A stretch of 63,197 nucleotides of DNA, filler included, from Nemertoderma westbladi (taxonomy: Eukaryota > Animalia > Xenacoelomorpha), in assembly GCA_032718475.1 (NCBI GenBank). It is 3 parts of 3 records of this genome, joined end to end, with 100 filler letters (N's around TTAATTAATTAA, not from the genome) between each part and the next. Parts side by side here need not be neighbours in the genome. Positions count along the whole stretch, not along the records: positions 31,771 to 56,809 come from JAUCBJ010001448.1; 2 more parts are not named here. One strand, written 5' to 3'. A program made the translations under genes and the position numbers. Positions 17,701 through 60,748 of this stretch are shown here, one piece after another; position 1 is the first letter of the stretch, and each line of letters opens with the position of its first letter. Under the pieces are notes generated by a model. That model had not been told where the DNA came from. It saw only the letters and a list, made by a program, of their open reading frames with translations, and ran no database searches.

Positions 17701-20700
17701 ACTGTCTATAGTCCGACATGCTAGAGGTGAGTCATACTGTCTATAGTCCGACTTGTTTGAGGTGAGTGATACTGTCTATAGTCCGACATGTTAGAGGTGA
17801 GTCATACTGTCTATAGTCCGACTTGTTAGAGGTGAGTCATACTGTCTATAGTCCGACATGTTAGAGGTGAGTCATACTGTCTATAGTCCGACTTGTTAGA
17901 GGTGAGTGATACTGTCTATAGTCCGACTTGTTAGAGGTGAGTGATACTGTCTATAGTCCGACATGCTAGAGGTGAGTCATACTGTCTATAGTCCGACTTG
18001 TTAGAGGTGAGTCATACTGTCTGTAGTCCGACATGTTAGAGGTGAGTCATACTGTCTATAGTCCGACTTGTTAGAGGTGAGTCATACTGTCTATAGTCCG
18101 ACATGTTAGAGGTGAGTGATACTGTCTATAGTCCGACATATTTACTGCCCTAGTCACCACGTTTTCTAGGTAGCAGTATATCGAGAAGAAATGATATAAA
18201 GTTAATTAAAAAACTTTTCATTTTTAGATTTGCCTTTTCCTTGAATATCACGGTGGCCTCAAGTGACCTTATACCCAATCCTGTAACCATAGCAACAGGG
18301 AAAGCACTCCAACTGGAAGTTTTACTCTACGGCAATGAATTACCTCTGAGTCTTTCTTGGTATTTTGCACCTAAAGCCACAACCAATCCCAAGCTAATTA
18401 AGGTAAATCACATAAAGATAAATGAAAAGATTCGAGACAGGGGGGGGGGGGGGGGGAACTCGACGCAAAAGCCGCCTTGGCGAATTAATATCCCGCCTCA
18501 ATGTTAAATTCTCAATTTAGGGAAAGGAGCAGGTTACAGTGGCAAGTTATTTTAACCAAAACAATAAATAAACACAATAGAACAGGTTACAGTTATTTGC
18601 GTCCAATTTTCCCCTGGAGAGGGATGAATTTTTATTGCGTCCAGTCCCCCCCCCCCCCCCCCCCCCCCATATCTGAATTATTCAATTAAAAAGGTTAAAT
18701 TAAATCAAATTAGTGTACCGTACATGATCAGTTAGTTTAATCACTTGTTATTTATATTTTAAGGAAACTGCCCTAACTAATAGAACATTTTCAGCGGATG
18801 ACACCAATAATGTTGGGACTCTATATATAGAATCGGTTACTCATGACAACTACGGTGTTTACACGTGCGTGGTCAACGTAGGCACAGTAAAACCAACGGA
18901 GATTGCGTATACAGTGCAACACCCTGTGCTAAGTGTACAACCGAAGCATATATCCCACGTGTGGAATTTTGAGAACATACAAATGCGAAACTGTAAATTA
19001 ACAGTTACAGATGAAGCAGCTGATATGAAGAAAATAAATAATAAATATAACTTCAAAGAAAACGATCGTATTGACAATGGGAAATGTAAATCAATGATGA
19101 GTCAACAACCTCGTTGCTTGGTGACAATATCAGGTATCGATGGCAACGCATTGTCTATCAACCAGGGCTTGCGCTGCCGTTCCTATATCGAGCTACTTGG
19201 TAAAGAAGCCTACTTCAGCCAGGATTGTTTGCTATTTCCTAGTTCTTGCGAGTTCGGACTATCTGTGTCCGCGTGGTTGAGATTGAGTTCTCTATCGGAG
19301 AGCAACAAACCGATCAGCCTGATAGAAAGTCATCCGTTTGGTATCTATATCGCGTGTTACGGGATGAAGTTCTACAGAAGTAGATGCGACTTTACGTTCC
19401 GGGAAGAAGAGGGAAGACTGTTTCAGACAAATTTACAGCTACCAGTAAGTTAGTAGTGATACATTATTCCTTATTAATGTAAAGAATCTGGCCAATGCGA
19501 CACAATGTTAACTTAACATATTATACCAAAATAAAATATAACAATTTGCACTAATACATCATCTTATCAAGATACTCGGATTTACACGGGTATCAAATAT
19601 AATATGATGTCAAACAATACTACTGTAATTACAACACATCAGAGTACTTCAGATACAATTTCAATATAGTATCGCAATATATATAGTGCCAATATGACAG
19701 TGTGAATATTGATTCAAAAAATTTCAAAAATATATTCCTTCGAACCGGATTCGAACCAGTGACCTATGGATTACAATTATTGCACTACAGTCCACCGCTC
19801 TACCAACTGAGCTATCGAAGGACGAGAGCGATTTTCTTCCATGTGAAACAGCTCGCTATGACACAAAATTCCATCAGTAACACACCAAACCTGCCACACA
19901 TCCCATCAGCCACATACCAAACAGCTCGTTGCCACACATTATTGCATCAGCTACATCCCAAACAGCTCTTTGCCACTCATACACAGATTCCAATCAGCAA
20001 CATTCAAAAAAAAGATCGCTGTCAAATCAAATCAGCCACATCCCAAACAGCTTTCTGTCAAACATTCATTACATTATATTATTAAAGGAGAGGAGCAGGC
20101 TATATATGCACGTTATTCTAACCAAAACAATAAACGAGAATCAAAAAACAGGGCTCCCTATAGATGGATGTCGTTGGATTGTGGCCAGAGTCCCCAAACC
20201 CCTCTTCCACCCAGTGTGGGTAATATATGCGTCGTTCAAGTTGACCAATACCGTTGATATATAATAATAAAGTACTTTTAACTTTACTGATTACTTAAAT
20301 TCATCGAGTCTGTCCGCACCGATAATATTTACAACATACTTAACGCTAATTTACGCAGATGAAGAGATGGATAAACCTAGTGATGACGTGGAGTCCGGTC
20401 CGAGAATTCGTCGTTTACATCGACGGAATTCCCGAGGGGCGCACGAGCGGCCGACAGGATTACAGACAGCCGCTACAGTATGCGCCGGAGCTCAGCGTAG
20501 GTAAACAGGTTGCCCAGCAACGAGGGACGCATATAGCCGTAGATATAGACAATGTTGTAACGTGGGAAGAGGTGGTGTTGAGTGCGGAGGAAATAGGAGC
20601 AATGTATGGAAATATGATGGGTGTGAAATATTATTGGACTGAACCTAAATCCTACCAACTCAAGGGAACATTGGGGGATAAGGCGAAAGTCTCTTGCCCA

Positions 20701-23700
20701 ATACACGTGCAATTCAGGAAGAAGCCGCTACACGGTCTGTTACGCTGGTACGCCGATGATTCTACCGAGTTTGTGGAATCGAGAGGCAGAGCAGTGACGT
20801 TGAGTCCTCCGATCGGAGGAGTGCACGGAGGCATCTATTGTGCGATATGGAACGGCAGTATGGTTATTCGTTCTAAAACATTCCATTTGCCAAAGTGGAG
20901 TCCGCTATCTGAACAACAGCTGAATCAGAATACGGAATACAATTATGGAATTAAGGAACCAATTAATATACAGTTCGAACGGGAATCGTTAGTATTTTTT
21001 CTATCTACTAGATATTTTAAATAATCACATCCGTCACATCACATCACATCCGTCACATCTATCACATCGCACTTGCCACCAAATGATTGTTCTTCATTCT
21101 TAGTAGTCTTATCCAGTTTTGAATGTTTGAAGAGGGTTAATTAGTATCGCTTTAAATAAATTACAGACCCGGTGGTAATCTATCATGCCATAACGAACTC
21201 CCCTACCATAACAGTCCCACTCAGCTAAAGGTCTGTAAATGTCGACTCGGAGAATTAGGGAGAGATTGTCAACCTTACGCCGTCATTGTGAGGGGGGAAG
21301 TACACACGTTGAACCAACACCTCCGCACCTACAAAGTAGTACCATCGAACACCAATCTAACTGAGTATTACTTGGGAAAGTTCTGGAGTCTGAGTCAGAT
21401 ACTCAAATACAATAATACAAGAGTACATCGAATACAATCCTGTGAGTAGTTAATATCATAGGTTTAATATAATTACTTAAGTCCAGACTGGTGAAATAGC
21501 ATTCGTCATTATACAGTATGTTAATATTTTTAACGTCACCGTTTGTGCTTGTTTCTTAGTCATGGTAGGTTCGAGAGCTGTTGTGCCCTGTATAGGTGAA
21601 CGCCAACACTTACAACAATCTGAGTCGTTGAGTGACATGACATACCTTTGGTACCATGGCAACGGCCATCGTAAAGATCACGTAGTCAAAATAGATCTGT
21701 TGGGAAAAATGGATAGATTTGGTGCATTAAGATTTCGAAGTATTGAAGCCAAAGATTCTGGTAGGCACTATTTAATATTATTTAAGTGTTTAAAATCAAA
21801 CAGAGCAATAGCGTTGCTACTGCATTTACCACCGTGAACATTATTCTGAGGATGCTTCGTAATTGAGAAAACAATTCATAAAATACGCCAGTGATTAGAA
21901 AAGAATGGTATTAATTCAACAAATATATTTTATCACAATAATTACAATATTAATAATATTTTAATAACTACTGTATAACAAAAGAACCATTTACCAGCAG
22001 ATGCTTCCAATTAATAGTAATAACATGGCATAAACTCAAGTTTTGTATTCCAAAAAGTTGCGTTTTCAACTTCTAGGTATTTACATTTGTGAAGTTCGGT
22101 ACTTCAATCTCAGTTACTACGGGAAGCAGAACTTTAGCGTCGCTATATTTACGGAGAAACGAATTGACATTAATTATCACCTCCAGATGATTGGCACGCT
22201 CGGTGGCACCTGCGAACCTATAAGAAGACACGTAAATAAAGCGAGATTTATTTAAATCCAAGGGTATACTACTGTAGCAGTAAAATAATGTAGGCCTAGG
22301 CACCGAGAGCAAGTAAATATTAAGCGAACAAATTAGTATCGAATTTAAAGATGTTTGAAGCTTCGAAGATAATGAAAAGTTATTAAAAATATAAAGATAG
22401 TATTGATATTTAGTTATTGAATATATACATTTACAGGTACTTTATACGCAAAATTAATTGCAGGTTAACATTGAAGTAATGTTCACAAATAACAATTTTA
22501 AATATTTTGTCAAAGCGATACGAAATAAAATCAAAATTGACTTTACAGCACTAATCGAGACAAAAAGTGCCTGTGGGTTGGTGTATTTACTATAGGTGAT
22601 ATACATAGAGTTACAATAATTTTCGGTATCAACTGTAGCTAATAAACTGAAACCAACATTTCGATTTAAATGTATTCTCCATAAAAATAAATAATTGTAT
22701 TACAAAAAATATAATTGCATTATAATAATTGTTGATACTGAGTAGTAGGCCTAGTTGGGTCTTACTGTAGTACATCAATTATTTTTACAGTATCTCGGAT
22801 TGCAAACTCGACAATTTCTAATGAAGAAATTCTGCAACGCCGGAGATTGTTCTATACTAGACATGAGGGCCAACTGTTCCGATCACAACAAAAAAGTCGT
22901 TGTCTACAGGTAAGAACAGTCTAGCAGCAGGTCACACCAAGTAAGTACCGGTACCACGCTATATGGCTCGGACATCGTATTATCGCTATACACCACAACT
23001 ACTGTACCGCGATGTACCATGTAAGCCTACATAAAGATCTAGATATACACACATACAATTTTGTCATATATATTATATAATATTATGCATTATTATTTTC
23101 TTACATTACGTAAATTCCTTTTATTGTATATTTTGGCAGCTACCACAAGCAGACAGATCCCACAATAGTTTGTTAGTATGCCGAGGTCTCCTTTCTTGGG
23201 GAGAGGCTTTAGTTGAACTTTAGTCTAAATTGGTGGTGGCTTTTCCCCTTTTAACATCCGGTTACAAACATTCAATATTGGTCTGTTTAGCACTCCGGTT
23301 TTCCATACCTCCGCTGGGATTTCATCTAATCCACTCGCTTTATTATTGGACATGCTTTTAATGCTTCTTTGGAGTTCGGCAGGTGTGAAGTCCCCTGTTT
23401 CTATAGGTAGTGTCTTGTAATATATTTTCCTTGTAGGGCTGACCTCGATGTTTGGTGGCTGCCCAAGCAAGTTGCTGAAGTGATTTTTCCACTTCCCAAC
23501 ACGTTCTTCAGGACTACCGGCTTTGAGGCCCCCCTTTGCACAAATTTTCCGACCAGATACCTCATCTACAGTTTGCCAGGTAAGTCTTGATTGTTGCTGT
23601 ATGTGAGCAGTTGTAATTGCTTCAATTTTATACTGTATGTACTTTTCCTGGCTGATGTTGTAGGCCAATTTAAGATCGTCCTTAGCTTTCTCAACCTTGT

Positions 23701-26700
23701 TAATGTTTTCGGTTGTTGGTTGTTCGGTTTTAACTTTGGAGGCTATCTTAAGATCTTCTCTCTTACAAGTAACCTCATAGTTTTGCCATGGCACATACTG
23801 TTTTCGGTTGGGTTTCTGGGGGATATGCCTCTTAGCTGATTCCTTGTGGGCTGTTATTATATTCTGGGATATTGAATCGGTGGACTGGTCTTCATCCATT
23901 GACTGAAGTGCTTCAAAGCGGTTTTGAACTTCTACTGTGTAAGCATCCTTTACAGCATTGTCAGTTCTGAGTTTCCCCAGTCATAGTTGATTTGCTTGCT
24001 TGCCCTGGGTTTGCTGGTTCTCAAACTGAGTCTGATCTCTGCAGTCACAATTATGTGGTACGAACCAATTAGGTTGAACGAGCTGTATGCCTCGCAGTTG
24101 ATCATGCTGTTTCTCCACTTTTTGTTTATAAGGATGTAATCCAGTTTTTCTTTGGTTCCATTAGGGTATTGAAAGGTCCATAGCTTCCCCTTACTCTTTT
24201 CGAATGTGTTGTTTGTTGGTATCAATTCACATTCTTCTATTAGGTCTAAAATTAAGTACCCAGTTCTGTTACAACTGGTGTTACAGTATATGTGTAACCC
24301 TTGATGTCTTCTGGGCCAATTTGCGTATTCAGGTCACCAGCAATGACTTTAACATTGTGTTTCGGGATGTCCTTAATAAGTCCAGTCAGATCTTCATACA
24401 ACTTGACTGCTTGTTCTGGCTCTGAGGCATTGGTTGGACTGTAGCAACATATAACTGTTGCCTTGGGATTCCCATCAAATGTTGCGATCATAACCCTGGA
24501 ATTTATAGATTCGATGTTGTTTAGGGTCTTAAGTGCAAATGGGCTTAGCAGAATTCCTACTCCACCAATTGATGCATTGGCCGAGTTTCTTACTGCTGAG
24601 CTTGTTACTAACGTCCATCCAATTCCAATGTCATTGTACTTCATGGCAGTGTCTTCATGACAAATCCGATGTTCTTGGATGCAGATGCCAGATGATGTCG
24701 ATGTTATATTCCATTGCCAGAGCGACTAATAAGATTTAATAGTATTTAATAGTGATTCTTTAGAATAATTAGCTAAATAATTTCGTTGAGGCATTGACAT
24801 CGTAAATTAATATTTCAGTATCAATACTATCGGCATAAGGTAAGTATATATATTACTTACAAATTGGGTCGCCTCCACGGCCGCGCCTTAAATTCTTTTA
24901 AAACACAAATTTTTCTGTTAATACCTTTTATGCCTCTCATCAACCCTCTGTGCGAAGACCCCACGTACGTGTTTCAGTGTTTCAATGCATATGGTTGATG
25001 TACAATACAGTAGTAGCTCGGTTTACTATTTATTATTAGGCTTACTGAAACGGACTTAGATCGTAAATCCACTTGTTACTTTTGGTGTTTGAATTATGAG
25101 TCCCTTGTGGTTTATACTTTCGCCATTGAGTTTTCGATCTGTATTCCGCCGACGTTAAAGCCACAAATCAGTAGTGACATTTTATGTGCAACTAATGTGG
25201 ATTCATGGATGTATTATTAGATGTTCCATCATTGTAAACAGTGCTGGTTGTGCGTAGAGTAGATCATTATTTTGTTCTTAAATATGCGTATTTATTGAGG
25301 TGAATAAATGTTATTACTGTTAGTTTGGGGCAGAATTTATTGCCTATATGTCTTAAAAAATATAAAATAATTTATCGTAATCAATATGGTGCGCATTTTT
25401 TATTGCCGGAACATTATATTTATCTCATGAGTATTATACAACACTGTTTTTCAAATAATAAGTAGATCATAAATAATTAAAATTCTAACTTGTAATAAAA
25501 TGAAATCGGTACATAAGGCCCTTTCACATCCAACGGAGCGGTAAACCGCGCGATGTATCACAGGGCCAGCGGGACACCGCTGAGTGTGTACGACCCAGCG
25601 GTATTCGAGCGGTAAATGATTTTGATCACGGCTGACTTTAAACGACCCAACAGGTAGTTGTGTGGTACACCGCACGGTTTACTGGCTGGGGACTAACGCT
25701 GGGGACTCCCTTTGTTTCTAAAATAATACTTTAATTAAATCATTATACGTAGTATAATAGATTAGTACGATAGGTTAATAAGTTTAGTTTATTAGGTTCA
25801 ACGCCAAGTGCAGATGCTAGTGTTAGAGGGTGGTTTGAATCTGAAAACTATTTTACAAAAAAAATAGTGCAGCAGTTTTCCGGTGCGGCTCATAACCCAA
25901 ACTATTAACAGAGGCGCCAAAAGTGTATTATTCGAGCGGCATATTTTTACTTTAGGTTCTTTTGGAGTCTCATAATTTATATCTAAAATCTTTATGATAA
26001 TAATTTGTTTATTATTTATTATTTATATATTATATATATATTATTATTATTTATATTTATTATTACGATTAGGCCTGAACACTGTTTGGAAGATACTTTT
26101 ATTTAATCATCCCTTCGTTGCAAAATGATATCAATTATTACGTTGCTCTCAGTAATATCTGTATGCAGCTGTGGGAAACTAATCAATGATACCAGGACCA
26201 TCATGAGAGCAACAAAAGAACTAAACGACAAATTGTTTGCCAACTATTTTCCACAGACTCGACCAATTTACAACCAGAACGAAGTTATAGATGTTCAAAT
26301 TACATTTACATTATCTCACATCGCGGACATTGACATTGTCCATTCCACAATGGTATTCTCGGCCTGGGTCGTCGCATTTTGGGAGGATGAAATCCTACAG
26401 TGGGATCCAGATGATTATCTCGGAATTAAACTGCTCACTGTTTCTCCAGAAAAGATTTGGACACCGCAGATAGTCTTGTTAGGCATGTTAGAAGTTAGGA
26501 CGGGCGATGTTGTCAACTATATTACCATCGAGTCAACTGGTGAAATTAAGTGGCATCAAAGGTGGAACATGAAATCAATCCAGAATTTAATGGCAACTTA
26601 TTTTCCCCACGATATTCAACTTGTTACCTTCAACATTTCCTCCTGTACATACAATGATAGTTTTGTTCATTTGATTTGGAGTGAAGAACTTATGTTTTCT

Positions 26701-29700
26701 ATTATGGTTAATGATTATTTGCCATCTAATGAATGGCTTTGGGAGGACAGTGTTATAACTTCCTTTCCAACAAAATATCTAATAAAGCCCGGCGGGGAAC
26801 CGGAGATGTTTAGCACTCTTACATGCGCCGTTACATTACGCAGAGACCCTCATTTCCACTTCCAGACAACAATTTTTCCATCTGTTGTTATCAGTATCAT
26901 CATCCCCATCGTATTTATCATTCCACACGAACAAGGCGATCGCATCAGCCTCGTTTCCGCACTTTTCTCCGCCCAACTTCTCAATCTGGTTGTGGTGCAG
27001 GATTACCTCCCGCCTTCGGGAAAGACCCTACCTATACTTTGTCAGCTGTATTTCCTTAATGTTTTAATTACATTGGCCACCGTGATCATGTGCGTGATTC
27101 TCTCTCAACTGCGTTCTTCTGTTAAGAAGAAAACATCAGAATGTGCTCCTTCATGTGACACTTCTATTGAAAATGTTCCTAGAGAAAAAACTCAAGACGA
27201 AAGCCCCCCTGCAAATATTATTACCTCGGTAAAATGGTATAAGAGCCAACATATTATGAAAAAGGTTCTAAATTATGCCGATATAGTTATGTTTCTCATG
27301 ATGGTAATCATTGCGTTGTTCAACAACTTTTACGTGGTTCATGAATTTTCCAATGGAAAGAATAGTCGAGAAATAATGGAAGACTTTCTCCGGACATATG
27401 GTACTGGATCCACCATTTACGATGTCTCTTACTAAGACAAGGCATAGATTATTTGGAAATATGGAAACTCATACTCGTTTTACACAATGTAGACCTATAT
27501 TATGTAAACTCGTAAACTGTAAAAAACTGTGAAATAGTTTATATTATTATTACTACTACAACAATGTAGTATGAGAAAGAATATAAGCTAAAACCCTTAC
27601 TGGTGTTGTAGGTAAATAGGCAACAGCCTGTAGGTGTAAAGACGAAAAACGGATAGTCACCAAAATGTTTAATTCATTTATTGATCAACCCCACCAATCT
27701 GTATTTGATCAGATAGCTTCTCCTCTTGTGAACTTCTCTCTTGCTACCATAATTACAGTAGTAGAGTATCTTAGCGATATAAAAAGGTCAAATTGTGATA
27801 AAAGTTTCAAACCAAATTTATTGTAAGTACGGTTGGGTATATAGATGACAAAAATACCATGCTCCAAAAAATCTGACCGTATATTAATTAATACTTTAAA
27901 TTTCGTGTTTCTTTCTTAGCAACATGGATTTTATATAGCAACAAGGTAACTGGTAAATAGACCCTATTGGTGAAACTTTTCCCAAATATTTTGAAGACAA
28001 ACTTTAGTCCAATGACCATCGACAGTATGCACTACCGCTGTTATACCACATTGATAGTTTCCATGAGCAAATTATATTTGTCAAATTATTTAGTCAGTTT
28101 ATTATCTACAACTTCTCGACTAAACGATGGAATTTAACCCAGCCCAACAGATTTGTCGACCTCAAAAACCCTTGTTCACAAAAAATTGACTTATTATATC
28201 ATAAACTGATGCGGATTTTAATTTAAACTTAATTAAAACAAATAAATAAATTATCAATTCAGCACTCACAATGATTATTAAGGCAACAATGATCAGCGCA
28301 AATATCTTAAACTTCATAATTTGAAAAAAATCTACTAAAAAACAGCTGACGTTGCGATTTAATCCATAATCATTATCAAAGCAAAAACTAAAAATACCTA
28401 GAAATTAGCGAAAGACAGTAACCGGTACTAAAATATACACATCATGAAGTTTTTGTGCTGTTCACTGCTAATCGGTTACTCAGACATAATTAATTTTTTT
28501 CTGCATCAAGGTTCTGGCTCTACATGTCCTCTTACCAAGTTCTCTCGAAGAAAAACCAGTTGACCGCTGAATGTAAAAACAGTCACTCGTGCTTCGCTAG
28601 CGTAGCCACAAAATATTTAGACAACGTTATTGGACTGATGCAAGGAGAACCTGTGAGTGAAATATCTTAATCCAAGTACTTTCTGTATCCTGTACCGGTA
28701 ATTATATATAATACTAGTAAGTTATTCAATCTATTATTGAGCAGTGCAGTAAAGCTTTTCCAGTCGACAAACTTACTATTACAATCACACACATTATTAC
28801 AGTAAAATTATTTTGTGTACCGGCACCTCATATCAGGCTTGGCACGAGATTTCGGTAAAAATTGTATCTGACTTAACCTTGCCTTAAATTATTTCCCCGT
28901 CTTTTTGAAAAAATTACCTATTTTCGGTATTCAACGGTAGTCATAACAGATTTATTTTATTACCAAAAAAAGTTACATTATAGGCCTATTATTATATGTA
29001 ACCACAATTTCAATGACTTTTGGAGTAGATCTCACACACCATGTCCAGGAATATAGTGTTATTCAGTGATATCAGTAATATTTTTCGCGTGAAAAAATGT
29101 CATTCAGAGATAATTGCCTGAAGTTCTAACCTTCCCGCGCAAAATTGCCTGTATGGGGTCTGGTTGGTTATTAGAGTCTGACAGGAAGGAAGCACGCCAC
29201 CGAGCAAAAATTATATTCAGGGGGTTTTCGGGGTCGCTGATTTCATTTCCGAAGGCAGGTTTAATAGTTGATAGAATCTAGTCTGTCCATCGGTCGGTTG
29301 TCTGTTTGTCTGTCTTACATTTTGACATTCAGATTGCTAGACATATAGAACTAAAAGATATCTCTCTAAGCAGTTTTTAGATTTGAAATCCCCATTAAAT
29401 TCTGCTCTAGATGCACTAAAAAACAATTCTAAAATTTGTGATCATTATATGCGAACACCCCCCCCCCCCCCCCCCAACAATTTAAGGGGGCCCCAAATTG
29501 ATCCGGCCCTGCCCCCCCCCCCCCCCCCCCACCCTCCATCCCCAAACTTTTCCACGAAAAATAATGCGATTGTATGAAATTTGCAACATAGTGATTCACC
29601 CCCACCTTCTCAGTGGGTGAGCCAGGATTTTAATTTTTACTTTCATTCTTTCATACTTTAGCTACAAGCGTATCAAAAAGTGTCTCCGGTGATATTTCAC

Positions 29701-37075: not shown

Positions 37076-40000
37076 GACCAGAATTAAGTCTGTTAATCCT
37101 AAGAATAGAAGACCGAAAGAAATGCAAAAATACATGAAACTAAATTAGTCTAAATCACCAGCTTTCCTTTCTGCATGACCTGCAATAACGACAAACCCGA
37201 GGCACCTCTCTTGGTTAAACAGTTTGCCAGTTGCATCTGCCCCGAAATCCAACAGATGTCCTTTACTTCACCTTTCTCCAGCGATTCTTTTATTGCAGCA
37301 AGATCAATACGTAACTTTCTGTCGTCAACCAGCTTGGTAGAGTGGATTGATTCTATCACGCTCTTATTATCAACATAGGCAGTAATTGGAAGTGGAACTT
37401 CATTTCCACTTAAAAGTTCCAGAACGATGCTACGAATATAAATCGCCTCTTCCAAACCTGCTTCCAAACTCAAGGCTTCTGCTGCGATAGTTGATCTGAC
37501 AACACGTCGGATCTTGTTAGTGGTCCATGAGACTGGACAAGATCGCTGTCCCATTCCGACCAAGAATACGATGAAAGACATGGTACTACTGATTTTATCA
37601 TTAAGATTCGCTAGCGCTGCGTCAGTAAACACAACAATTCTCCAAAAGTAAAAGGATCCAAGATTCAGAAACAAAATATAACAGGAAGAGTCCTTAATCT
37701 TTCGAATAATTGATTTTACACGAATGAGGTTCTCCAAGCGTGCATTCTTGAATTTTGTACTCAATTCCAGCAAATCGAATGACCAATCAGGGCGACATCC
37801 CTGAACTACCCAGTTCAGTTTTCCAACCAAAGATCGGTAAATAGACATATCCTTTGCACATAAAGTTTCACTCTTATCAACACCAAAGACTTGATCCGGA
37901 GCTCGAGTATCAAGTCCTTGAACATATCTGTCCTGAATTAGATGGATCGCTCCATTGTCAGACTCCTGGCGAATCTCAAAGCCAATATATTTGAAATTTC
38001 TCTGCTCTTCCTTGCCCGCAATAAATCTCGCTTTCAGTTCATTTATAACAGCCAATTCAAAATGTTTGGTGCCAGCATGTAAAAAGTCGTCCATATGAGA
38101 AACTAGCAAGCCACATAGCTTCTCCTTATGATACTAATAAAACAGGGTAGGGTCCAACTGTGATTTCTTACATCCAAGGGATATTAGTGCTTGAACCACG
38201 CTAATATAAAACTGCCTTGGAGCATCGTTAAGCCCAGAAAGACATTTCTGAAGATGCCACACCGTACCCGACGCTGCCTTGGCTTCTTTAGGAGGTGTTA
38301 AATAAACTGGACGCAACATATCTTCACTCTGTAAGAAAGCAGATTTAACATCAGTTGTTTTAACAATCCATGCATTTGTAGCTATAAGACCAAGTACAAT
38401 ACGCAAGGTGCTCTTATTCACTGTAGGCGAATCAGTAGGAAAATCAACTTCCTCTTCAAAACCACGAGCTACAAGCCTCGCACGTATTTCTTCTCCTTTA
38501 TACCATAAAACCCAACGGGTCGATATGCAATTCTGTCCAGAATAAACGACTTCCTTATAGGCATTAAAATCGATGAGTTTTTTAAGTTCAATCTCCTTTG
38601 CATTCATACACTCCGGTCTGTTATGTTCCCCCCGTGGAATGAGAACCAAATTTACTTCTTCCACAGATTCAGGCTTCCATTGTAACTGCTCTAAATCAAC
38701 GCTCCGTGAATTGCCTGTCACATCTTCAATATTATACCAGTTGGAATATTTTCCTGATACTTTTCCGGCTCTCCCGAGTACGGTTGCTGAAAACCACTGA
38801 TCATTATTTGGGTCATGTATAGTAATTTTGTCCTTAGGTTTTGGATATGAAGATCTGGTTACTGCCGAAAAGTTGGGAAGTTGTGTAGTCAGAGACTCGG
38901 CTCTCGTAGTCGTATCGGAAATTATGGCTTCTGGGGAATATTGGGCACAATCATTCAGTGAGTTAGGTTCATCATCTTCGCTCACTTCACCAGGGTCAAT
39001 CTCATCCGTGTTTCCTTTCTGAATTATTTTACATTGATTTTCACTATGCGGCTGCGCAGCAAACTCCTTACCCACTTTTACAATTCTGTTAAGAGACACT
39101 CGAACATACACACTTCCATGGCGTACAAATATGATTTTGCCATCTTGGCCAATAACAATACCGTGACCGTGCCATCTAGGACTATCGTTTCGTTTGTAAA
39201 ACACCTTTTCTCCGGATTGAAAACTTTCATTGGATACCCGTATTTTATGACGCAACGCCCGCCGTACTCGCTCTGAAGCTTCCGATTTCAAAAATGCCAA
39301 TCTTGATGCATGTAGTGATGTCAAATGCATAGCAAACTGTTCACTAATTGTTTGACCTTCTAGAGCAGGAGGCTTATCTATCAGAGTAGATGGCAATGTG
39401 GGGTTCTGACCAAATACCAATTGATAAGGTGAAAAACCTGAAACATTTTGAAGAGCATTTTTAGCATTTACTGCCCAAATCAATGCAACTTCTAGACTAA
39501 CGGAAGGATTATCTTCTATTAACTTCTGAACAGATACATCGATGACTCTGTGGTTCCTTTCACATAATCCGTTCTGCCAGGGACTCTGTGCCGCAGTATT
39601 CAGAACTTCAATGTTAAGATTCTCACTCATATCGCGGTACTTCTCGTTAGCAAATTCACCGCCGTTGTCTGCTAGAAATTTCTCCGGAACGCCCAAACCA
39701 GAACCGATCCATAATTTCATTACTTTATCAATTATTGTATCAGGTTTCTTATTCGTAATAATGGTGGAGAGAGAAAACCGGGTAAACATGTCGATTAAGT
39801 GTAAGAAATATATTTCAGGTTTGTATTCCTTTAAGTCCATGGCCACAGCTTCATTAAACCTTTTAGCAATTGGTAACCCAACAACAGGACGGGCAGGGGT
39901 CTTTTTGAATCTTAGACATATCTCACAGTTTCTTTCGAGATCATCAATAACTTTTTCACAATCTTTATCCCAAAATCCTGCATCTTGTAATAATGCGCGT

Positions 40001-43000
40001 AGTTTCTTGCCCGAAGGATGTGCAAACTGCTTATGTAACTTTAATATAACTTCTTTCTTTTCTTTTATTGGTCATTCATCGAGCGATACTAAACACATCC
40101 CGATTTCAACATCAGTTTTCTTAAGAGGAATAATATAATGACCCGATGTAGTGCAATCTAGAGTTACATCTCGACCAAATACTTTAGCCCGATCATTCTC
40201 CAGATCCAGATTAATACACGCTTTCTTCATTGCCGATTTGCTGAGTAACAGTGGGATATCACTATCGACAACATCTGTGCGTATCCGTATTTTTGTGCCT
40301 GCCATTTCACACGGAAATATGACTTCGTAAAGCGATAGTTTTTTTTCTCCACCTCCAAATCGAAAAGAACGCCCTCCAGGATTTATCAGCACAATGGATT
40401 TTTCCTGCGCTGTTAAAGATTCCAAATAACAATCCATCCATAACTTTCCTGTAACTGTTGAACTGCAACCACTATCTAGCACAGCAGCATTTAAAGATTC
40501 GCCTGCCAACCGTCCCAACTCGTCTAAACTTCCTCCTGTGAAAAGAACAAGGTTCACTTCGCCACCGTAATCATCCTGTTCCAACTCTATAGATGCCTCG
40601 TAAACCCGATCCATATTCTCGTAGCTGTCAATACAATCCTTCACCAAATGACGAATTGACTCACACGAACTGCAGCGAAGAACATTCCCATCAGATCCTA
40701 TAGGATTCAATCGTTTTACCTGTGCATCCCTCCTTGGAATGAAATCTCTCTTATCGCGTCTTGGGAAACCAGCTCCACGATTTACTCCTGTAAATCCTCC
40801 ACGATTATAACCATAACTATAGCTGGAACGCCCTCGACCAGCACCTGGAAATCGACTTGTGTTCGCACCCCTATAACCGGAATCTCCAAACGATCGTCCC
40901 TGTCCACGATATCCTCCAGCGTTAGCATAATTCCCTCGAAAAGGTGAATATCTTGCGTTTGCATAAAACGCCTCCTCGTCTTCAAACTCTTCTGTCATAT
41001 TAACCGACTCCATTTTTATCGGAAGATCTCGATGCTCTTCACTGGATGTTGACGCAATAGTCGACATGGATTGACTACCAAAAAACTTACGTAACGCCGC
41101 TTTTGTTTGCTGAAACAGCGACCCCTTCTCCGAGTAATTGACAGCTGTAAGAACCAATTGCCGATCTTTATACGACAAGTTTGCCGCATCTAGCATTTTA
41201 AATGACAGGAGAGGTTGTGGCAGCTCCATACCACACTGTTTACTTTTATTATATCGCTTCTCGAACTCTATTATAAACACATCCAACGTCTGTCCGCTGT
41301 CTTTCGAATATCGATATCTATCAAATTGCGTATATTTTTCATAAACCGCCGATAATTCGTCCTTCTTAAAAATATCATCAAGAAAAGTTATTAAACGAGT
41401 TACCCCATCAACCGATTTAAGATCCGCTAAACCTATCTCGCTAAACACTTTGTCCCGTACTCCGGATGGATCATCCTCCAGCAATGCCAACGCAATCGCA
41501 ATTCCGCGTTTCTCTTTTACCAACTCCGTCACTTCGCACCATGCGTTGACTTCCTGTATAAATCGTTCGTAAGGCTTGCTCACACTGTTGAACAGTGGCG
41601 GATTTTTATAACTCGAAGACGCCATATCGCTAATACGCAAACTAAATAATAATACGCTAACAATACGCTAACACGCTCTGCTACCACTGTTGATCCTAGT
41701 TTATATATTGAAAATATAGCTGTATGCTTGTACCGGTAACCAGTACCTGTATGTATTTAATAACACTAAACGCTATATGGTAAATATAATAATACAAGAC
41801 ACCCGGTCGCAACATGCAGACATGCCAGGTCGTATTACAGTAGTTATCACAATATATATTACATAACAAAAATCCCATTTGAGGAGTCAGTATGTGTCCT
41901 ACAAAGTGACACACGAACGCTCTTTTACTTTCACTTTCAGGCTACAGAGGCGAGCTTTTCTAACCAAAACAATAAACAGTTACAATACAAAATGAGAAAT
42001 AAGAGCAGGTAACCAGAGGCGGGCTTTTCTATTCTAACTACAGTATTTAATATAAATATTTAACATTGAGAAAGGCGGCATCAGGATTTAACTTAAAGAG
42101 CACACATGTAATAAATAATTATTTGTAGGGTTTTTCGCAATTAGGGGAGTCATCCCCCCTAAGGGGAGTGTTCTCAGCCTAGGCTGAGATAACTTGGGAG
42201 TGTTCTCAGGCTAGGCTGAGATAACTGGGGAGTGTTCTCAGCAAGGCTGAGATAACTGAGGGGTGTTCTCAGCCTAGGCTGAGGTAACTGGGGAGTATTC
42301 TCAGCCTAGGCTGAGGTAACTGGGGAGTATTCTCAGCCTAGGTTGAGGTAACTGGGGAGTGTTCTCAGCCTAGGTTGAGGTAACTGGGGAGTGTTCTCAG
42401 CCTAGGTTGAGATAACTGGGGAGTGTTCTCAGCCTAGGCTGAGATAACTGGGGAGGGTTCTCAGCCTAGGCTGAAATAACTAATAACTGGGGAGTGTTCT
42501 CAGCCTAGGCTGAAATAACTGGGGAGGGTTCTCAGCCTAGGTTGAGAGGCCTGGGAGGTCATTTAAAGAGGGAGTTATCTCAGCCTTGTACACAGGGTAT
42601 AAACATTTTATTTTAAATATTTTTATTTTATTTAATTGAATTTTACAATATCAAAATTTTCCAAATCACACAAATTTTAACTCCAGTAGAAATAAATTCA
42701 TGAATTATTTGAATAGATTTCATGAAATTAATTTAACATAATATGAATATTGTCAAGTAGCAATTAACAACTGGCAACTGAACTAATTGTTATTTGTTGC
42801 TAACTGTTATTTTTTTACTTATATTATTTAAGTCATTTATTGTTTTGTTTAGAAATGCTAACCACAGATATGCCAAAGCCCCTTGGATTTGGAGATCAAT
42901 GGCAAATGGCAAACAATTAAGTACACTATCAAGGATATGGAAATCGCCTAGAATCATACCCGATAAGTAAATTTATTCCTGACAAAAGCAGCTTGTGTTG

Positions 43001-46000
43001 CTATGAGGCAACCCCTGCAAGTCTGTTACTGCCTGCAGAAGACACTATCCATCGATTATAACTTCAGGGATAATGACTGTAGAAAGGGTCTAATGCCACG
43101 GTTAACGAAAACAGTTTCTATTTATATGGCCATTTCATCCTCACGGACGTCTTCAGTAAATAAATTAAAATAACATTAAAACACAATTTATAAACCTAAA
43201 CCATAATATTAAATTTAACGTACGGTACAACCAATTATTATGCCACCAAATTCCGATATATACAGTATGATAGGATGTATGTATTAGATTAACATATTTA
43301 AATAGAGGGGTAGAACTTTAATATTGATCTGAGGCGGGACGCCATAAATGGGTACGCCACGAACGGCATCATTTCGACTTCTTTCCCATTTAAATATAGA
43401 TCCAAGGGCAATCAACGATGTCAGAAACTGTTTAAAACTTAAACTAAACCAAGTACGTACGCTACAACAAATTGATTACTTTAAATCTTGCCGCCAATCT
43501 AACTTCCCGCCTCAATTTATGGCGTCCCGCCTCAGATCAATATTAAAGTTCTACCCCTCTATTTAAATATGTTAATCTAATACATACATCCTATCATACT
43601 GTATATATCGGAATTTGGTGGCATAATAATTGGTTGTACCGTACGTTAAATTTAATATTATGGTTTAGGTTTATAAATTGTGTTTTAATGTTATTTTAAT
43701 TTATTTACTGAAGACGTCCGTGAGGATGAAATGGCCATATAAATAGAAACTGTTTTCGTTAACCGTGGCATTAGACCCTTTCTACAGTCATTATCCCTGA
43801 AGTTATAATTATGGATACGCCACGAACGGCATCATTTCGACTTCTTTCCCATTTAAATATACTATCCATCGATGGCACATACACAAGTTTGTTACTGCCT
43901 GCAGAAGACACTATCCATCGATGGCACATACACAAGAATGCTACGCAGAATCCATGGTATAAGATATAATGCCCAATTAACAAACTTAATATTTTGTATG
44001 CAAACTTGACAATAACTATTATTACCAAAATCCAACACCACACTGTAGTCATGACGAATAAGTCATGCAGGCCACAGCTATTATAGAACATATTTCCTTG
44101 TGCATGATCTACAGCTATTGAAGTTGGAAGGAGATAGGATTAGAGGAAAGCCTTCACCTTACTGAAACGTATGTTAAGGAGGTGGAGGTTAGTATGGAGG
44201 CGACCGGTAATACATATCTTTGTGGTGAAGGTGTATGTATCAATGTATATACATTCCTTCTTTCCTGGTAATTTCCTAAAATACAACATGTATGGTTAGT
44301 ATGGAAGTTCCCAAATTCACTGGCACGGATTTAAGAACATACAAAAAGAGAGGGAGTTTTAAACTGCTTGTTGGTATTTAGTTTCTTGTTATCAAGGCCT
44401 ACTAGAAGACTATCAGCTGACCAGTGACCGGTACTCATCTACCGGTAGTACAGTAGTAGGCCTTGCTCAGTTGCAGGCCTACCGTACTAGAAATTGAGAT
44501 ATGGGACCCTCCTGACAGAATCAATTTTATTTATTTATCCTGTAACCTGACTGCCTCATTGACTGCATTGTTAGGGTTAGTTGGTCAAGCCTCGTCCGTA
44601 ACTGTATCCATGTGTGTCTTTGTAAGTAGCGTAGCGTTAGTGTACCGGAACCGTCAGGCCGTGTTACTTTAGTGAATTTCATTGCATTTTGCTACCAGGC
44701 AGCCAGGCTACCGGTATGTTTTTGATTTTAAATTTTGGTTAGGGTTAGTTGGGTAATGTGTACCAAGTTTAATAGTATTTGTAAGTTACCAAACGTATAC
44801 AGTACAGTACAGCAGTACAACCAATGGAACAAATCTACGTATCAACGAACTGGTGAAGTGAATTGTGATGCGATCTGTTGTTCTCAAATGGTCAAATACC
44901 TTTTGTTTCTATTTATTTAATATTTATACGGTGGTTGTATCTCTCCATCCTATACATCAGTCAGTACCACTTACCGCAGTAGGCCTACGTTATTAAACGT
45001 ACTGACGTACTGACGTAGCAGCATAGCAATAACTTATAACAGAATAATACTGCTGCACTGAGATATGATGCAGCCTTTTGCTATTATAATCAGAGACAGC
45101 TGGGTTTGTGTGGCTAGTAAATGCGGTTTAAGAGTTTACGACACCACAATAACCACCCAATCTTTGCTATATCGTTACGACTGGAAGGTGAGTGGCTCAG
45201 GGGACGCCAAGGTTCCACCCACTAAACCAACGGGGGGTGAATGTTCCGACTCGGATACCGAAATCCCAAATAACGGACATACAGACTCAGTAACCAATCC
45301 GACACCAGTCGACCACCAATTCGGTATCGATGACTTCGCCGTATCCAATAGCAACGAAATGGTCGCAATAGCAACGTCCAATAAATGCGTCCACGTGTGG
45401 CTGACGTCGTCGTGGCGGTTGTTATGTGAGCACAGAGAGTCTAAACGATGTACAGCGTTGGCCTTCACTGCGCGGCCACCAGAACGGCTACTGGTTGGCG
45501 ACCGGCAGGGCAACGTCTACCTTCGCGCCGGGTTGCTAAGCAACCAGGGCCGAGTGTTAGAGGACCCTCCGTTGCTAGGCCACTTCTCGATAGTAACCGC
45601 GATGGTTGTGTCTCCCAACGACGAGGTGGTAGTGACGGCAGATAGAGACGAGAAGGTACGAGTGAGTCGCTTCCCCAACTCGTACAACGTGCGGAATTAC
45701 TGCCTCGGTCACAAACAGTTCGTGTCTCATCTCGCCGTGCTATCTAATGTGCACGCTTCCGGTTCCGATCTACTCACTTCCGGTCAAGCCAAACTCACTT
45801 CCGGTCAAGCCAAACTCACTTCCGGTCCCGCCAAACTTACCTCCGGTCCTGACACACTTACTTCCGGTACCGACCTACTCACTTCCGGTGCTGACCTACT
45901 CACTTCCGGTGCCGACCTACTCACTTCCGGTGCCGATCTACTCACTTCCGGTCACGACCTACTCACTTCCGGTGCCGACCTACTCACTTCCGGTCACGAC

Positions 46001-49000
46001 CTACTCACTTCCGCTTCCGGTGACGGCACCGTTATCCTATGGGCCTACAACGACGACGGCCTACGACTCGCGACATGGCGCGGCACGGTGGATCGCCCTT
46101 TTACCCGACTCGAACCGGTCTGTGGCAGCGCCGTCACGGTCGTACAGGACCGACGGATGTCCGTACTACGGGCCCGACACACCGGGTCGCTAGGATACCA
46201 GTTTGAGGAGGTCTACACACGGGACGATGTGTTGGATATCGCGGTCTACGGTGAACTAATAGGCCTCATCGTCTGCGAGACAAGGGGTGACTCCGCGGTG
46301 AGTTGGGGTGGTTCAAATGAGTCAACAGAGAGTCGGATGAGTCAATGTGATTCAAACGACCCGAAAATGAGTCAAAGTGGTTCGAATAATTCGGATGTGA
46401 CTCATAGTGGTATTAATAGCCCGGAAGTTAGTCTCCATGTTGTTCGGTTCGTAAACGGTACTATTTCCGATTCCGAGATCCGGTGGCCGTCGGATTTCCT
46501 CGATGACGTCATAGAAACAGCTACCGAAGCTGTTCGGGAGGGACTGGTTGACAGGGAACTCACTGACTATTACGATATGTATAAAGACGTTAATCAGATC
46601 AACTTACAGCAATATTATTGGAGAAAAAGTAAACAAATGCGGAGGGCGGATGAATCAGATTGTACACTAGTTGGTTCCTAAAAGACTATAAATAATGCTA
46701 TCAGAATAGCATTTGAACTGGGGTGGGGGCACAAAGTGTATTCAATGATAAATTTGTATGCCAAGCATTCTGTAAGATCCATTAATACTTCTCGCGCTGC
46801 GAAGGCCTGGCTCAATCTTAATTTCGTAGATCTTCAACGTGGTGTTCGACCATAATGTTCTTGATAAGATTCAGTTTCAATTGAATCAGCTCGAACATAA
46901 ATAAGTATGTAAACTGATTAAAGAACAGTGATAATTCTTAATAATATTTATTTTATTGTTCATCTCACCTCTCAAACACAGCTCGTTGATTTATTGTCGG
47001 CATAAGGGAATGCAGCGGTATAATTAAATGGTTAGCCGTAAAGTAATTGTCATTTAGGAGGAGGCCATTCAGCTGAAATGATTAATTACAATTAAAAAAT
47101 GGATCGAAATTTTTAAGTTAAGTTTAAATTCATTCCTGTTCACCCCCATTGATGATCTGCCACAGTTTTTTTAAACCCCGCCACTCTGTTTCCTAAAGGA
47201 ATAGTAACAATGTGTTGGCAAGCTGTATTTTTCGAGGTGTTTGTTATTATACATTTATTATAGGAAGGGATCTAATACAGCTTGCCAACACATTGTTACT
47301 ATCAATAATCAAAAACTCAGGGGCTAATAAAATGGCAGCTGGCTTTGAAATTAATACTCCATATCTCAAGAACCTGTGGCCTAGTGGTTGTAGTCTCGGC
47401 TTCCACTTCGAGGTCTCAGGTTCGAATCCGACACCACGCTGATGAGACCCAGTAAGGTCGAAACGCGTACGTGGTTTGGAGAGATATGAGATATTAATTT
47501 CAAGAAAAATTACGCGATTCTTAAATTTGTACACTACCCGGTTAAAAAGTACGCATGTGATGGGATTAGTCCTACAATTGCGCCAATAAAAGATGTTATT
47601 TTCGGTAAAATAAACTTATCATTCGAGGTAAAGACCCCTAGATCCCTTCCTATAATAAATCCTAAAGGAATGACTGTTCACCACCATGAGTGATCTTCCA
47701 CAGTAAACCCCTCCACTCTGTTTTCCTAAAGGAATGCCTGTTCACAATCATGGGTGATCTTCCACAGTAAACCATTCCACTCTGTTTCCTAAAGGAATGC
47801 CTGTTCACCCCCATGGGTTATCTTCCACAGTAAACCCTTCCACTCTGTTTCCTAAAATAATGCATGTTCACCCCAATTGGTGATCTTCCACAGTAAACCA
47901 TTCCACTCTGTTTCCTAAAGGAATGCCTGTTCACCACCATGGGTGATCTTCCACAGTAAACCCCTCCACTCTGTTTCCTAAAGGAATGCCTGTTCACCAT
48001 CATGGGTGATCTTCCACAGTAAACCCTTCCACTCTGTTTCCAGAAGGAATGCCTGTTCAGTGTTCACCATCATGGGTGATCTTCCACAGTAAACTCTTCC
48101 ACTCTGTTTCCTAAAGGAATGCCTGTTCACCACCATGGGTAATCTTCCACAGTAAACCCCTCCACTCTGTTTCCAAAAGGAATGACTGTTCAGTACCATG
48201 GGTGATCTTCCACAATAAACCCCTCCACTCTGTTTCCTAATGGAATGCCTGTTCACCATCATGGGTGATCTTCCACAGTAAACCCCTCCACTCTGTTTCC
48301 AAAAGGAATTCCTGTTCACCACCATGGGTAATTTTCCACAATAAACCCTCGACCACTGTTTCCCAACTTACCTTAATTCCCATTTATCGACCAGTCAAGG
48401 GGGAAAGCCTGGGTAGGGGCTACGCTGTTATCTTGTATTTATTAGATTAACACCAATCATTACCTTCACTATAAACAAACCTTACTATTGTATTGAATAG
48501 AATTGATTTCACTAACCTTCGAAATATCAGCCCAGCCTGGAACAAACACCAATACGGCCCCGGCAGGTCTATTTAGGCAGATCCACTTTATAGTTCGAAA
48601 CGCTAAATCGACATCGAGTACCGTATGGTCCATAGTCGATAAAACATCGACAATTCGCCAATCCACGGATCCTTTAATCGATTCGATATAACCGGGCAAC
48701 TCGCACCTAACTCTATCGAGTCTGTACCGTTCTCTACGGGTACTGCGATTGCGACTCAGCCAAGCAATCCGTCGCCAATTCCGCTGCTTCGTCTGCGGAG
48801 TCCACGGAACTTCGTTTAAGATAGTCTCGAGATATTGACCGACTACGGGGAAGGCCCTTCCTCCGCAGTCCAGTACCGGACAGTTGGAGAAGTAATCGCT
48901 GAACTTACTGGCCTCCAGGGTCGCGCTCATCAGCACCACCCGCAGGTCGGCCCGTTTCCTTAGTAACCCCTTGACTATGACCAATAGGAAGTCTTCGAGG

Positions 49001-57912: not shown

Positions 57913-60748
57913 AATATTGTTCTGCAAGATAACGGTGAGCTGATTCATGATCATACTCTAGTTAGTAATTTATTTAATAATTATTTTACTAATGTTGCCT
58001 CTAATTTAGTTAAAAGAAGTTACCGTTATCAAGTAATAAATATAGTATAGGGTCCGAAACTCTAATAATTGTTATTTAGAAAAGTTACAAAATTCAGAAA
58101 AGTTATTTTTGGAACCCGTTTCTGAGGATTTCGTTTTCCAAAATCTACTTAGCCTATCAGCCTCAAAAAGTACCGGTCTAGACCTAATACCTGCCCGTTT
58201 TCTTAAGGATGGTGCTGAAGTACTTAAAGTGCCTATTACTTTTATTATTAATTACTCTATCGTAGATAATGTAGTACCAGACGAACTGAAATTAGCTAAG
58301 GTTGTTCCTCTGTATAAAAAGAATAGTAAAGTAGAACCCTGTAATTACAGACCTGTTAGTATCTTAAGTATTGTATCTAAAATTCTAGAACGTTCTGTTT
58401 TTCTACAGCTGGAAGCACATCTTAGTAGGCTAAATCTGATCTATGAACTTCAGTCCGGTTTTCGTAAATCATATTCTACAGACACCTGCCTTATTAACTT
58501 AACTGATACAATTAGATGTAATAACGCAAAGGGTTTATATACTGGTATGGTAATGTTGGACCTACAAAAGGCTTTCGATACTGTAGATCACGAAATTCTG
58601 CTTGGTAAGTTAGCCCTGATGGGTGTAGGTTCTATAGACTGGTTCAAGTCCTACCTGTCAGACGCAGGTCAAACTGTAGTCATTAGCAAATCGCAGTCTA
58701 CTGTACAAGAGATTACCTGTGGGGTACCGCAAGGTAGTATATTAGGTCCTCTGCTTTTTGTATGCTATGTAAATGATATGATAAGTAGTATAGATCCCGA
58801 TTTTAAACTGATTTTATATGCCGACGACAGTGCTCTTATTTTCTCTCATAAAGATCCTATCCATATTTCCCAAAAGTTAAGTGCAGTTCTAGAATCCTGT
58901 AATGAGTGGTTGGTTGATAATAAGCTATGCATTCACTAATATAGTAAGCCATTCCATTGAGAGACTGCTCCGTGGAAATCAGAATGGGTTCCGTAAAGGT
59001 CGTGGGACCATAGAACCCATTTTGGCACTTAGAAGGATAATTGAAGAGTTATCAAAAAAGAAAGACAGGCATCTGGCTGTTATCTTTGTTGACTTCTTCA
59101 AGGCCTTTGATTCAGTCTCCCGCTCACGTATGTTCAGCATACTTTCATTCTATGGGATTCCTGATGAAATTATTGCAGCAATCAGATCAGTATACGATGG
59201 TTCGACAACATTTGTGTCTACTGTTGATGGTGACACAGAACCATTTGAAGTGTTATGGGGCGTTCTCCAGGGAGACACACTTGCACCATTCTTGTTCATA
59301 ATTGTGATTGACTATGTTCTACGCATGTCCTTAGATCATCATAATGATGATGGGGTGATGATAACTCCACCTACTGGCTCCAGAAGTCGAGGAAATCCTG
59401 CCAAGTACCTAACTGATCTAGACTTTGCTGATGACTTAGGAGTACTCTCAGAATCACTAGAGGGAGCCCAACGGCTCCTCAGCTCATTGGAGCATGCTGC
59501 TTCTAGTGTTGGTCTTTTTATTAACTCCAGAAAGACCAAAATGTTGACAGTTAACTTTGAAAGTTCTCAGCAAGTCTCTGATCGGATGAGCATAAGCTCA
59601 AAGGATGATATGCTTGAGCATGTGGACGACTTCTGTTACCTGGGATCATGGATCCGGAAGTCAGGGGAGGACCTTCGAATACGTAAGGGAAAGGCATGGG
59701 CAGCCTTGAATAGGCTTTCCAGGATTTGGAAGTCACCGAGAATTAATCGGAAACTTAAGGTCCGATTATTTAGAGCAGCAGTAGTTCCAGTACTCCTCTA
59801 CGGGAGTCCATGCTGGGCTCTAACTGCTGTGGATACCAAATCTCTGCATGGCACATTCACAATAATGCTACGCCGGGTTCATTGTGTCAAGTACAATGCA
59901 CACATCTCCAACCAGACACTATATAACATTGGAGGTGTCTCATTGGTTCCCCCAAGCTTGACACTAGAACAAAATCGCCTCCGCTTTGCAGGACATTGCT
60001 TTCGCGGTGAGGACCAGCCAGTGCATAATCTTGTACTTTGGCAGCCTCATGGAGTGAATAAGCATGGTAGACAGCCCATGACTTTCTTGAGACGCATCTT
60101 AAAGGACACTGGCCTTGAAGATGCGGATGATGTAAATGTCATGGGTGATAGGGAGTTGTGGCGGCGCAACTTTGTCGACAAGCCGGCACAGCAGCCGACA
60201 CTCTTACAGTCCAGAGCTAGTGCTTCAAACTTCTACCTCCCGAATTGTAAATCCTTTGAATCCGATACTTTCTTTTTTAACGGCATTAAAAATTGGAACG
60301 CTCTGCCTAATGAAATTAAAAACCTAGATAATCCACATTCTTTTAAATCTGCAGTTAAATCTCACCTCCGTGTGCAATGTAAAAATAGGTATAATAATCC
60401 TACAGTAAGTTATTAGTTTATTAATTATTTACTATTTATACTGTAATTACGTTTTATATTAAATTGTTCTGTACATTACATCTTTATCGTTGAGTCGGGC
60501 ATTGTCACGCTTTCGGTAAAGTTGTACATGTACATAGTGTAATTACGTTTTATATTGGTTTTAGGTTAGCGTAGTGTAATATTGTATTTGTAACCAAATA
60601 ACATAAAGGACCCCCTTGGAAATAAGCTGCAAAGCTTTAGGGGTAATCCTATATGTTATGTTGGACAATACCTTTATACCGGTACATTGTTTGGTGTATT
60701 TGTTATTGTTTTTACATAATGTATAAATAAATCTATCTATCTATCTAT
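57913..60748 (+). mobile_element. 5'-truncated Crack/L2-group LINE with its RT C-terminal region replaced by an RTE fragment
   Basis: [68 protein letters not shown]. Tail FFFNGIKNWNALP..FKSAVK. 3' stem-loop 60611-60649, AATAAA and (ATCT)n. Confidence 0.85.
58935..60208 (+). mobile_element. RTE-clade LINE RT fragment
   Basis: QNGFRKGRGT, FVDFFKAFDS, GVLQGDTLAPFLF, LDFADD, YLGSWI, VLLYGS..W, RLRFAGHC.R, DRELWR. Confidence 0.88.

Follow-up and report, generated by a model that had tools for sequence, protein, structure and literature searches.

Which enzyme moves the retrozymes of animals, and from what RNA, is an open question. It is raised by a locus of Nemertoderma westbladi at which a tRNA-like head runs into a hammerhead ribozyme, within a stretch of 63,197 nt that was analysed as a whole (the window). 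We consider, with a probability of about 0.75, that the 410-nt family found there is a young, very abundant non-LTR retrozyme of the Sm-alpha design, moved in trans by a Penelope-like (PLE) reverse transcriptase/endonuclease. The combination of promoter and hammerhead cannot be claimed as new, being known already from Sm-alpha, and mobilisation by PLEs has been proposed before; an insertion-level PLE footprint on an element of this design did not turn up in our literature search.

Structure and setting of the insertion

The features are collected in Table 1, and the coordinates of the first-pass annotation all agreed with our own. The span that it had given, 47201..47660, is present, but the insert proper is shorter by the microhomologies at its outer bases. 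Junction microhomologies measured 2 nt, 1 nt and 1 nt, and one of the 1-nt microhomologies marks the point where the direct copy (387 nt) and the inverted copy (74 nt) meet head to head. The inverted piece had been said to span the end-to-start junction of the element. It does so base for base: the reverse complement of 47639-60, the 23 nt and 47274-302, joined in this order, is identical to 47201-74, and both arms are 100% complementary. The tail consists of the 23-nt linker plus the first 29 nt of the next unit. The inverted copy was likely primed from the top target strand.

Table 1. Positions of the features of the two hammerhead elements in the window
Feature	Position	Strand	Remarks
Insert proper, 410-nt element	47203-47659		outer bases trimmed as 2-nt and 1-nt microhomologies
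Left target-site duplication, 12 nt	47191..47202	+	in phase of the 63-nt satellite; last 2 nt match the element
Right target-site duplication	47660..47671	+	opens the 63-nt satellite array 47660-48363
Inverted 5'-truncated copy, 74 nt	47201..47274	-	outer end is the recurrent end "site 2", unit position 47302
PLE-type tail	47201..47252	-	50-52 nt, from end site 1 to end site 2
Linker, 23 nt	47230..47252	-	closes the 410-nt unit
Direct copy, 387 nt	47274..47660	+	ends at the recurrent end "site 1"
tRNA-like head	47370..47432	+	without acceptor stem
A box	47377-87	+	motif match
TCC triplet in 7-nt loop of a stem-loop	47400-06	+	part of the tRNA-like head
B box	47419-29	+	motif match
Canonical type I hammerhead, metazoan type	47427..47480	+	core from 47439
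Stem I	47433-38/47470-75	+	6 bp
Stem I extension	47427-31/47476-80	+	one bulged base
Stem II	47446-49/47456-59	+	4 bp
Stem III, palindromic	47463-68	+	predicted cut after 47469
Predicted long helix around head and ribozyme	47345..47503	+	47345-67 pairs with 47481-503
Lone sense-strand T4 run of the unit	47599..47602	+	possible weak Pol III terminator
463-nt element	43057-43860		3.3 kb from the 410-nt element; with target-site duplications 43044-43873
Unit of the 463-nt element	43348-43810		463 nt
Hammerhead core of the 463-nt element	43708		8-nt palindrome; predicted cut after 43739
Inverted copy of the 463-nt element	43055-43349		295 nt, perfect
Tail of the 463-nt element	43810-60		51 nt, on the direct copy

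The annotated doubling of target sequence on both flanks was also found, as a 12-mer at 47191-202 and 47660-71, but this 12-mer has seven occurrences across the window, the target being a 63-nt satellite. When the insert and one 12-mer were deleted in silico, the phase of the satellite was restored. The unit has 39% GC and no LTR/PBS/PPT layout, and its sole stop-to-stop frame (122 aa, minus strand) was taken as chance. Only one ribozyme is present in the copy at 47203-47659, and this copy by itself is unable to yield a ribozyme-to-ribozyme monomer. Matches to miRNAs on 47195-47309 were rejected as reflections of the inverted repeat only.

The window is animal DNA with many satellites. The 410-nt element sits between exons of a minus-strand DEAD/HA2 helicase gene, which we take to be DHX36-like. 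Nested on the opposite strand within this gene is an intronless WD40 ORF (45062-46681, +; presumably WDR4-like) with an in-frame 21-nt repeat; the element starts 520 nt past its stop and might lie in its 3' UTR. Other long intronless ORFs encode an SLC13 transporter (5287-7104, -) and a ligand-gated ion channel (26107-27435, +). Among the best 120 of 1933 matches, this SLC13 protein reached at most 44% identity, and the matches came from cnidarians, molluscs, insects and deuterostomes, with no flatworm named. ORFs of an LTR retrotransposon occupy 37150-41667 (-); they fall into three frames separated by stops and have the integrase ahead of a Copia-type RT domain (RVT_2). Fragments of LINE-type endonuclease and RT lie at 23225-24725 (-) and 58046-60416 (+), the latter with two different RT fragments side by side. 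At 1769-3021 (-), between blocks of a 22-nt satellite, two ORFs with HTH and integrase-core matches represent a possible DNA transposon remnant.

Promoter motifs and ribozyme

A and B boxes had been reported directly ahead of the hammerhead, and both were recovered at 47377-87 and 47419-29. The spaced box pair matched once in the window and in 0/100 shuffles, and so did the pattern of B box plus hammerhead. Both boxes fit their consensus, with no variant at or above 3% in two runs. Neither ARAGORN nor the Rfam tRNA model detected the head (47370..47432) as a tRNA, and its alignment score to the tRNA-Tyr of the window was equalled in 2/1000 shuffles. That tRNA-Tyr gene, at 19735-19822 (-), has an apparent intron. 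In a predicted refolding, 47370-47423 forms one long hairpin in which the first 7 nt pair with the B-box region and not as an acceptor stem. The conserved T4 run at 47599-602 lies ahead of both end sites, where it could terminate transcription by Pol III. We also considered selection against Pol III terminators (one T4 against seven A4 runs) and rejected it, since P(T4<=1) was about 0.5 in shuffles. Judged from these motifs, the head is predicted to let the element be transcribed by Pol III from its own promoter.

The hammerhead was described in the first-pass annotation as a perfect type I ribozyme with a palindromic stem III, and it is so base for base; the proposed extension of stem I by B-box bases (47427-31/47476-80) is present as well, with one bulged base. 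With 6 bp in helix I, 4 bp in helix II and a palindrome in helix III, it has the layout called canonical for metazoans (PMC4209133). The suggested comparison with Rfam gave a divided answer: the HH9 model matched (E 6.3e-5), but its score of 26.6 bits stays under the gathering score of 52. In place of the larger internal loop of the HH9 model, stem I shows a bulge of 1 nt. The expectation that a palindromic stem III favours the dimer was borne out by folding, in which the best predicted structure of two ribozymes was a double hammerhead (-42.7 versus -34.4 kcal/mol for two monomers). The circular fold of the unit was better than 100/100 shuffles (z -3.4) and that of the linear 387-mer better than 98/100 (z -2.8). 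A pairing of 47622-29 with eight bases of the linker is also predicted, and the long helix 47345-67/47481-503 would clamp both ends of a cut monomer. Self-cleavage is predicted to fall after 47469. Activity is not assured, because stem I is without the larger loop of HH9 and because 8/9 predicted Xenopus retrozyme dimers did not cut in vitro (bioRxiv 10.64898/2026.07.22.740005).

Abundance and age of the family

Of ten public sequencing runs listed, seven held the stretch or part of it, none of them on record as RNA; the sediment run X7 held a small share. Family coverage was read from the contigs of four runs, with depth as the sum over overlapping contigs and not as copy number. The unique left flank had a depth of 21 (X1) and 30 (X3), versus about 2e5-8e5 summed along the unit. 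Given this gap of four orders of magnitude, thousands of family copies are likely. The linker had been said to occur nowhere else. It is unique within the window, but in the run contigs it is a regular part of the unit: its bin was as deep as the unit body (7.3e5 in X1 and 5.2e5 in X3), and one X5 contig runs in sense from the unit end through the linker to the unit start. Together these two observations make the 23 nt a normal part of a 410-nt unit, and the head-to-tail junction of this unit exists in DNA. A multi-copy, non-coding retroelement family had thus been rightly proposed, and the junction was abundant in the run contigs.

Depth did not fall toward the 5' end of the unit. This flat depth suggests that most of the family sequence sits in multi-unit arrays, although the contigs are short and unable to show full dimers. 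Compared with the common letters at a cut-off of 3%, the copy in the window differs by five substitutions and four indels, none of them in the A box, B box or ribozyme core. From the few variants at this cut-off, the family is young.

Insertion ends and the Penelope-type footprint

The ends of other copies were taken from the best 12 of 343 loose-end rows and the joints from the best 15 of 44. Eight of these 12 are short alignment edges, while four have long, mutually unlike flanks (agreement 0.45-0.49). Within the same 12, the end at 47660 was seen in 16 X1 and 11 X3 contigs, both retaining the first few linker bases; at 47201, 18 X3 contigs exit into unlike flanks, and 13 X3 contigs end at 47309, these last two ends coming from one run. 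The ends group in two zones of the unit about 50 nt apart, one from 47660 to about +10 and one at 47302-09, and both zones are distinct from the predicted start of Pol III, from the T4 run and from the point at which the ribozyme would cut. In eight of the best 15 joints (44 in total), the inverted piece meets the direct copy at varying points; their depths, 10-222, are near that of a single locus, and four of the eight occur in both runs. Joint sides are 20-30 letters long and hence error-prone in repeats. In the X3 joint 47586-47423, a 17-nt piece matching 47290-306 ends at end site 2 inside another copy and is possibly a very short nested insertion.

Insertions of PLEs are described with partial tandems, an inverted 5'-truncated copy and a tail of 30-40 bp on one end (PMC8557442). 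A PLE protein of the anole cuts AT-rich DNA and extends both strands; it starts to reverse-transcribe at two internal sites, and these mark the bounds of the tail (PMC11167929). The recurrent inversions and the two fixed ends of the 410-nt family fit mobilisation of this Penelope type, as the first-pass annotation had suspected, with a tail of 50-59 nt that exceeds the reported 30-40 bp. An autonomous PLE was sought in the six frames of the window by RT and GIY-YIG motifs, with 0 matches.

The second hammerhead element of the window has a 13-nt target-site duplication in a 49-nt minisatellite. It has no A/B boxes and no Rfam hammerhead match, and its sequence shows no likeness to that of the 410-nt element (local score 22 versus a shuffle mean of 21). 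Its terminal redundancy has one mismatch, at 43352, which may reflect either a base of the junction or a difference between units. The like geometry of two unrelated families, with tails of nearly the same length, points to one shared mobilising enzyme.

Alternative explanations and the template

A LINE-moved, tRNA-derived SINE with an L1-style inversion and the hammerhead as a passenger would account for the A/B-box head and would find LINE-type RT fragments in the same window; twin priming, too, yields 5' inversions. However, the copy begins 96 nt upstream of the predicted Pol III start and has neither a poly(A) nor a simple-repeat tail, and both its ends lie at internal sites of a head-to-tail unit. 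A canonical LINE-driven SINE would begin at the Pol III start and carry a 3' tail that is A-rich or a simple repeat; neither mark is present, and we regard this origin as very unlikely. Equally improbable is a hammerhead satellite spread mainly at the DNA level, by unequal crossover or circular DNA, with the insert as a repair accident. The flat unit depth, which suggests mostly multi-unit arrays, and the position of the copy inside a satellite would suit it, but fixed 3' ends, variable 5' breaks, recurrent head-to-head joints and the 12-nt target-site duplication argue for target-primed reverse transcription; the arrays may later grow by DNA recombination. Somewhat less remote, though still unlikely, is a PLE-mobilised retrozyme whose A/B boxes are relics and whose arrays are read through by other polymerases. 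Such read-through is the model proposed for retrozymes generally (PMC7761336), a T4 stands ahead of the end sites, and the neighbouring 463-nt family has a like geometry without A/B boxes. Against relic boxes, both of them are at consensus without a frequent variant, a point that is softened by the youth of the family.

For the promoter-bearing retrozyme moved by a PLE enzyme, which we prefer, the steps may be pictured as follows. Pol III would start near 47370 in one tandem unit and read past the single T4 into the next, where adjacent hammerheads are predicted to pair via the palindrome and cut after 47469; some of the cut monomers may be ligated into circles. A PLE enzyme would make a staggered cut about 12 nt apart in an AT-rich target, and both target strands would serve as primers for cDNA, at two internal sites of the RNA that lie about 50 nt from each other. 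Priming of the bottom strand at site 1 would give the 387 nt, which extend backwards from 47660 past cut site and promoter, priming of the top strand at site 2 would give the 74 nt, and both products would be joined head to head.

The long product spans the cut site and extends 96 nt beyond the promoter, and site 2 lies past the unit junction. A linear monomer left by cleavage, or a Pol III transcript of one unit, could therefore not have been the template; the RNA must have been unbroken both at the cut site and at the unit junction, being either longer than one unit or circular. The first-pass wording "circular or multimeric" was thus logically right, whereas its headline of evidence for a circular RNA template goes too far: the junction abounds in the genomic DNA itself, tails and partial tandems are the norm among PLEs, and the main substrate of the one PLE studied in vitro was uncleaved RNA (PMC11167929). 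On balance we favour an uncleaved multimer as the template.

Religated 410-nt circles from self-cleaved monomers, copied in a rolling manner, would be a special case of the same retrozyme and are possible but the weaker candidate. They too would let the cDNA span both the cut site and the unit junction, the predicted circular fold is stable with clamped ends, and retrozymes of 170-400 nt accumulate as circles in coral, mussel and axolotl (PMC7229834). Yet the linear unit folds nearly as well as the circular one, in DNA runs the depth of the unit junction equals that of the body, the 51 duplicated bases tell nothing by being identical (at the divergence of the family, different units would match with a chance of 0.26-0.51), and ribozyme mutants of the anole PLE inserted normally (PMC11167929). 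The run X4 has the unit as a closed 441-nt contig (411 nt plus a 30-nt overlap), but X4 is only guessed to be RNA, bears another organism label and also has the 63-nt satellite as a closed 93-nt contig of higher depth (31.6 versus 13.8 for the unit), as trace DNA would. We rejected the closed 441-nt contig as circular RNA because the satellite closes likewise. The complete chain, in which the element is transcribed by Pol III from its own head, cleaves as a dimer, is ligated into a 410-nt circle and is copied by a PLE reverse transcriptase from two fixed sites, is offered tentatively, as a possible scheme that we hold less likely than not.

Comparison with known elements

Sm-alpha of Schistosoma, a SINE-like retroposon, is described as tandem units that carry a hammerhead behind a Pol III promoter, each upstream unit driving the next (PMC6765202); it is reported to be tRNA-derived and present in more than 10,000 copies (PMC2770079). 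As far as the passages cited here describe them, Sm-alpha and Sj-alpha share with the 410-nt family the tRNA-derived Pol III promoter, the type I hammerhead behind it and probably the tandem units, and the new element has an A/B-box head directly upstream of its hammerhead at the motif level. The loop triplet is different (TCC here versus tRNA-Gln-TTG in Sm-alpha), the host is not a schistosome, and the tail and inversion footprint of PLEs, present in the 410-nt family, is not named for Sm-alpha in those passages (PMC6765202, PMC2770079).

For non-LTR retrozymes, mobilisation by PLEs has been proposed (PMC7229834, PMC7761336), a link that rests on co-occurrence and pLTR similarity (bioRxiv 10.64898/2026.07.22.740005). 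In these descriptions, the metazoan members are, like the 410-nt family, non-coding AT-rich repeats of 150-450 bp with a canonical type I hammerhead and target-site duplications of more than 4 bp; they have tandem units, which the 410-nt family probably has too. The 410-nt unit itself has the full type I core with its helices, a length within 150-450 bp and a GC content below 50%. Unlike the metazoan retrozymes so described, it has an A/B-box head of its own. Circles were shown for those retrozymes and are only predicted here, and the link to PLEs comes in our case from insertion ends instead of from co-occurrence and pLTR similarity.

The 410-nt family further resembles the endonuclease-bearing PLEs, in what the cited passages tell of them, by its inverted 5'-truncated copy beside a direct copy, its tail on one end, its two recurrent internal 3' ends, its AT-rich target and a hammerhead upstream of the end sites. 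It differs from PLEs in having no ORF, a tail of 50-59 instead of 30-40, a canonical instead of a minimal hammerhead, and in the position of its end sites, which follow the cut at 191 and 243 nt. Helenus, Ajax and Cassandra (TRIMp3) are, in the passages of PMC10886601, likewise non-autonomous elements with a small-RNA Pol III promoter outside the partnership of LINE and SINE; however, they are LTR elements with PBS and PPT and carry no ribozyme. From these sequence features, the 410-nt element would belong with the retrozymes, and its way of working would resemble both that of Sm-alpha and that of a non-autonomous PLE.

Our search of the literature outside subscription journals and Repbase brought up no hammerhead element that combines a tRNA head with PLE-type ends, and none is described in the passages of PMC10886601 and PMC11722881. 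The pattern of B box plus hammerhead core had 0 matches in viral contigs. In metagenome contigs it hit 66 loci, 64 of which were re-read, with 0/64 credible relatives; one locus that passed the filter on stems I and II was rejected, as it has no stem III and follows an ordinary tRNA gene.

Significance

The 410-nt family extends the Sm-alpha design beyond schistosomes and provides a young, abundant, retrozyme-like family with a PLE footprint at its insertion ends, and the nearly equal tail of the 463-nt family points to one enzyme shared by both. It also gives precise predictions, namely two RT start sites, a cut site and a Pol III start, and with long reads the choice between circle and multimer as template becomes testable from sequence alone. 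If the tentative scheme with its ligated circle were true, the family would represent a class of SINEs partnered with PLEs and not with LINEs, and the nature of the template, circle or multimer, would be readable from the insertion sequences of a young high-copy system.
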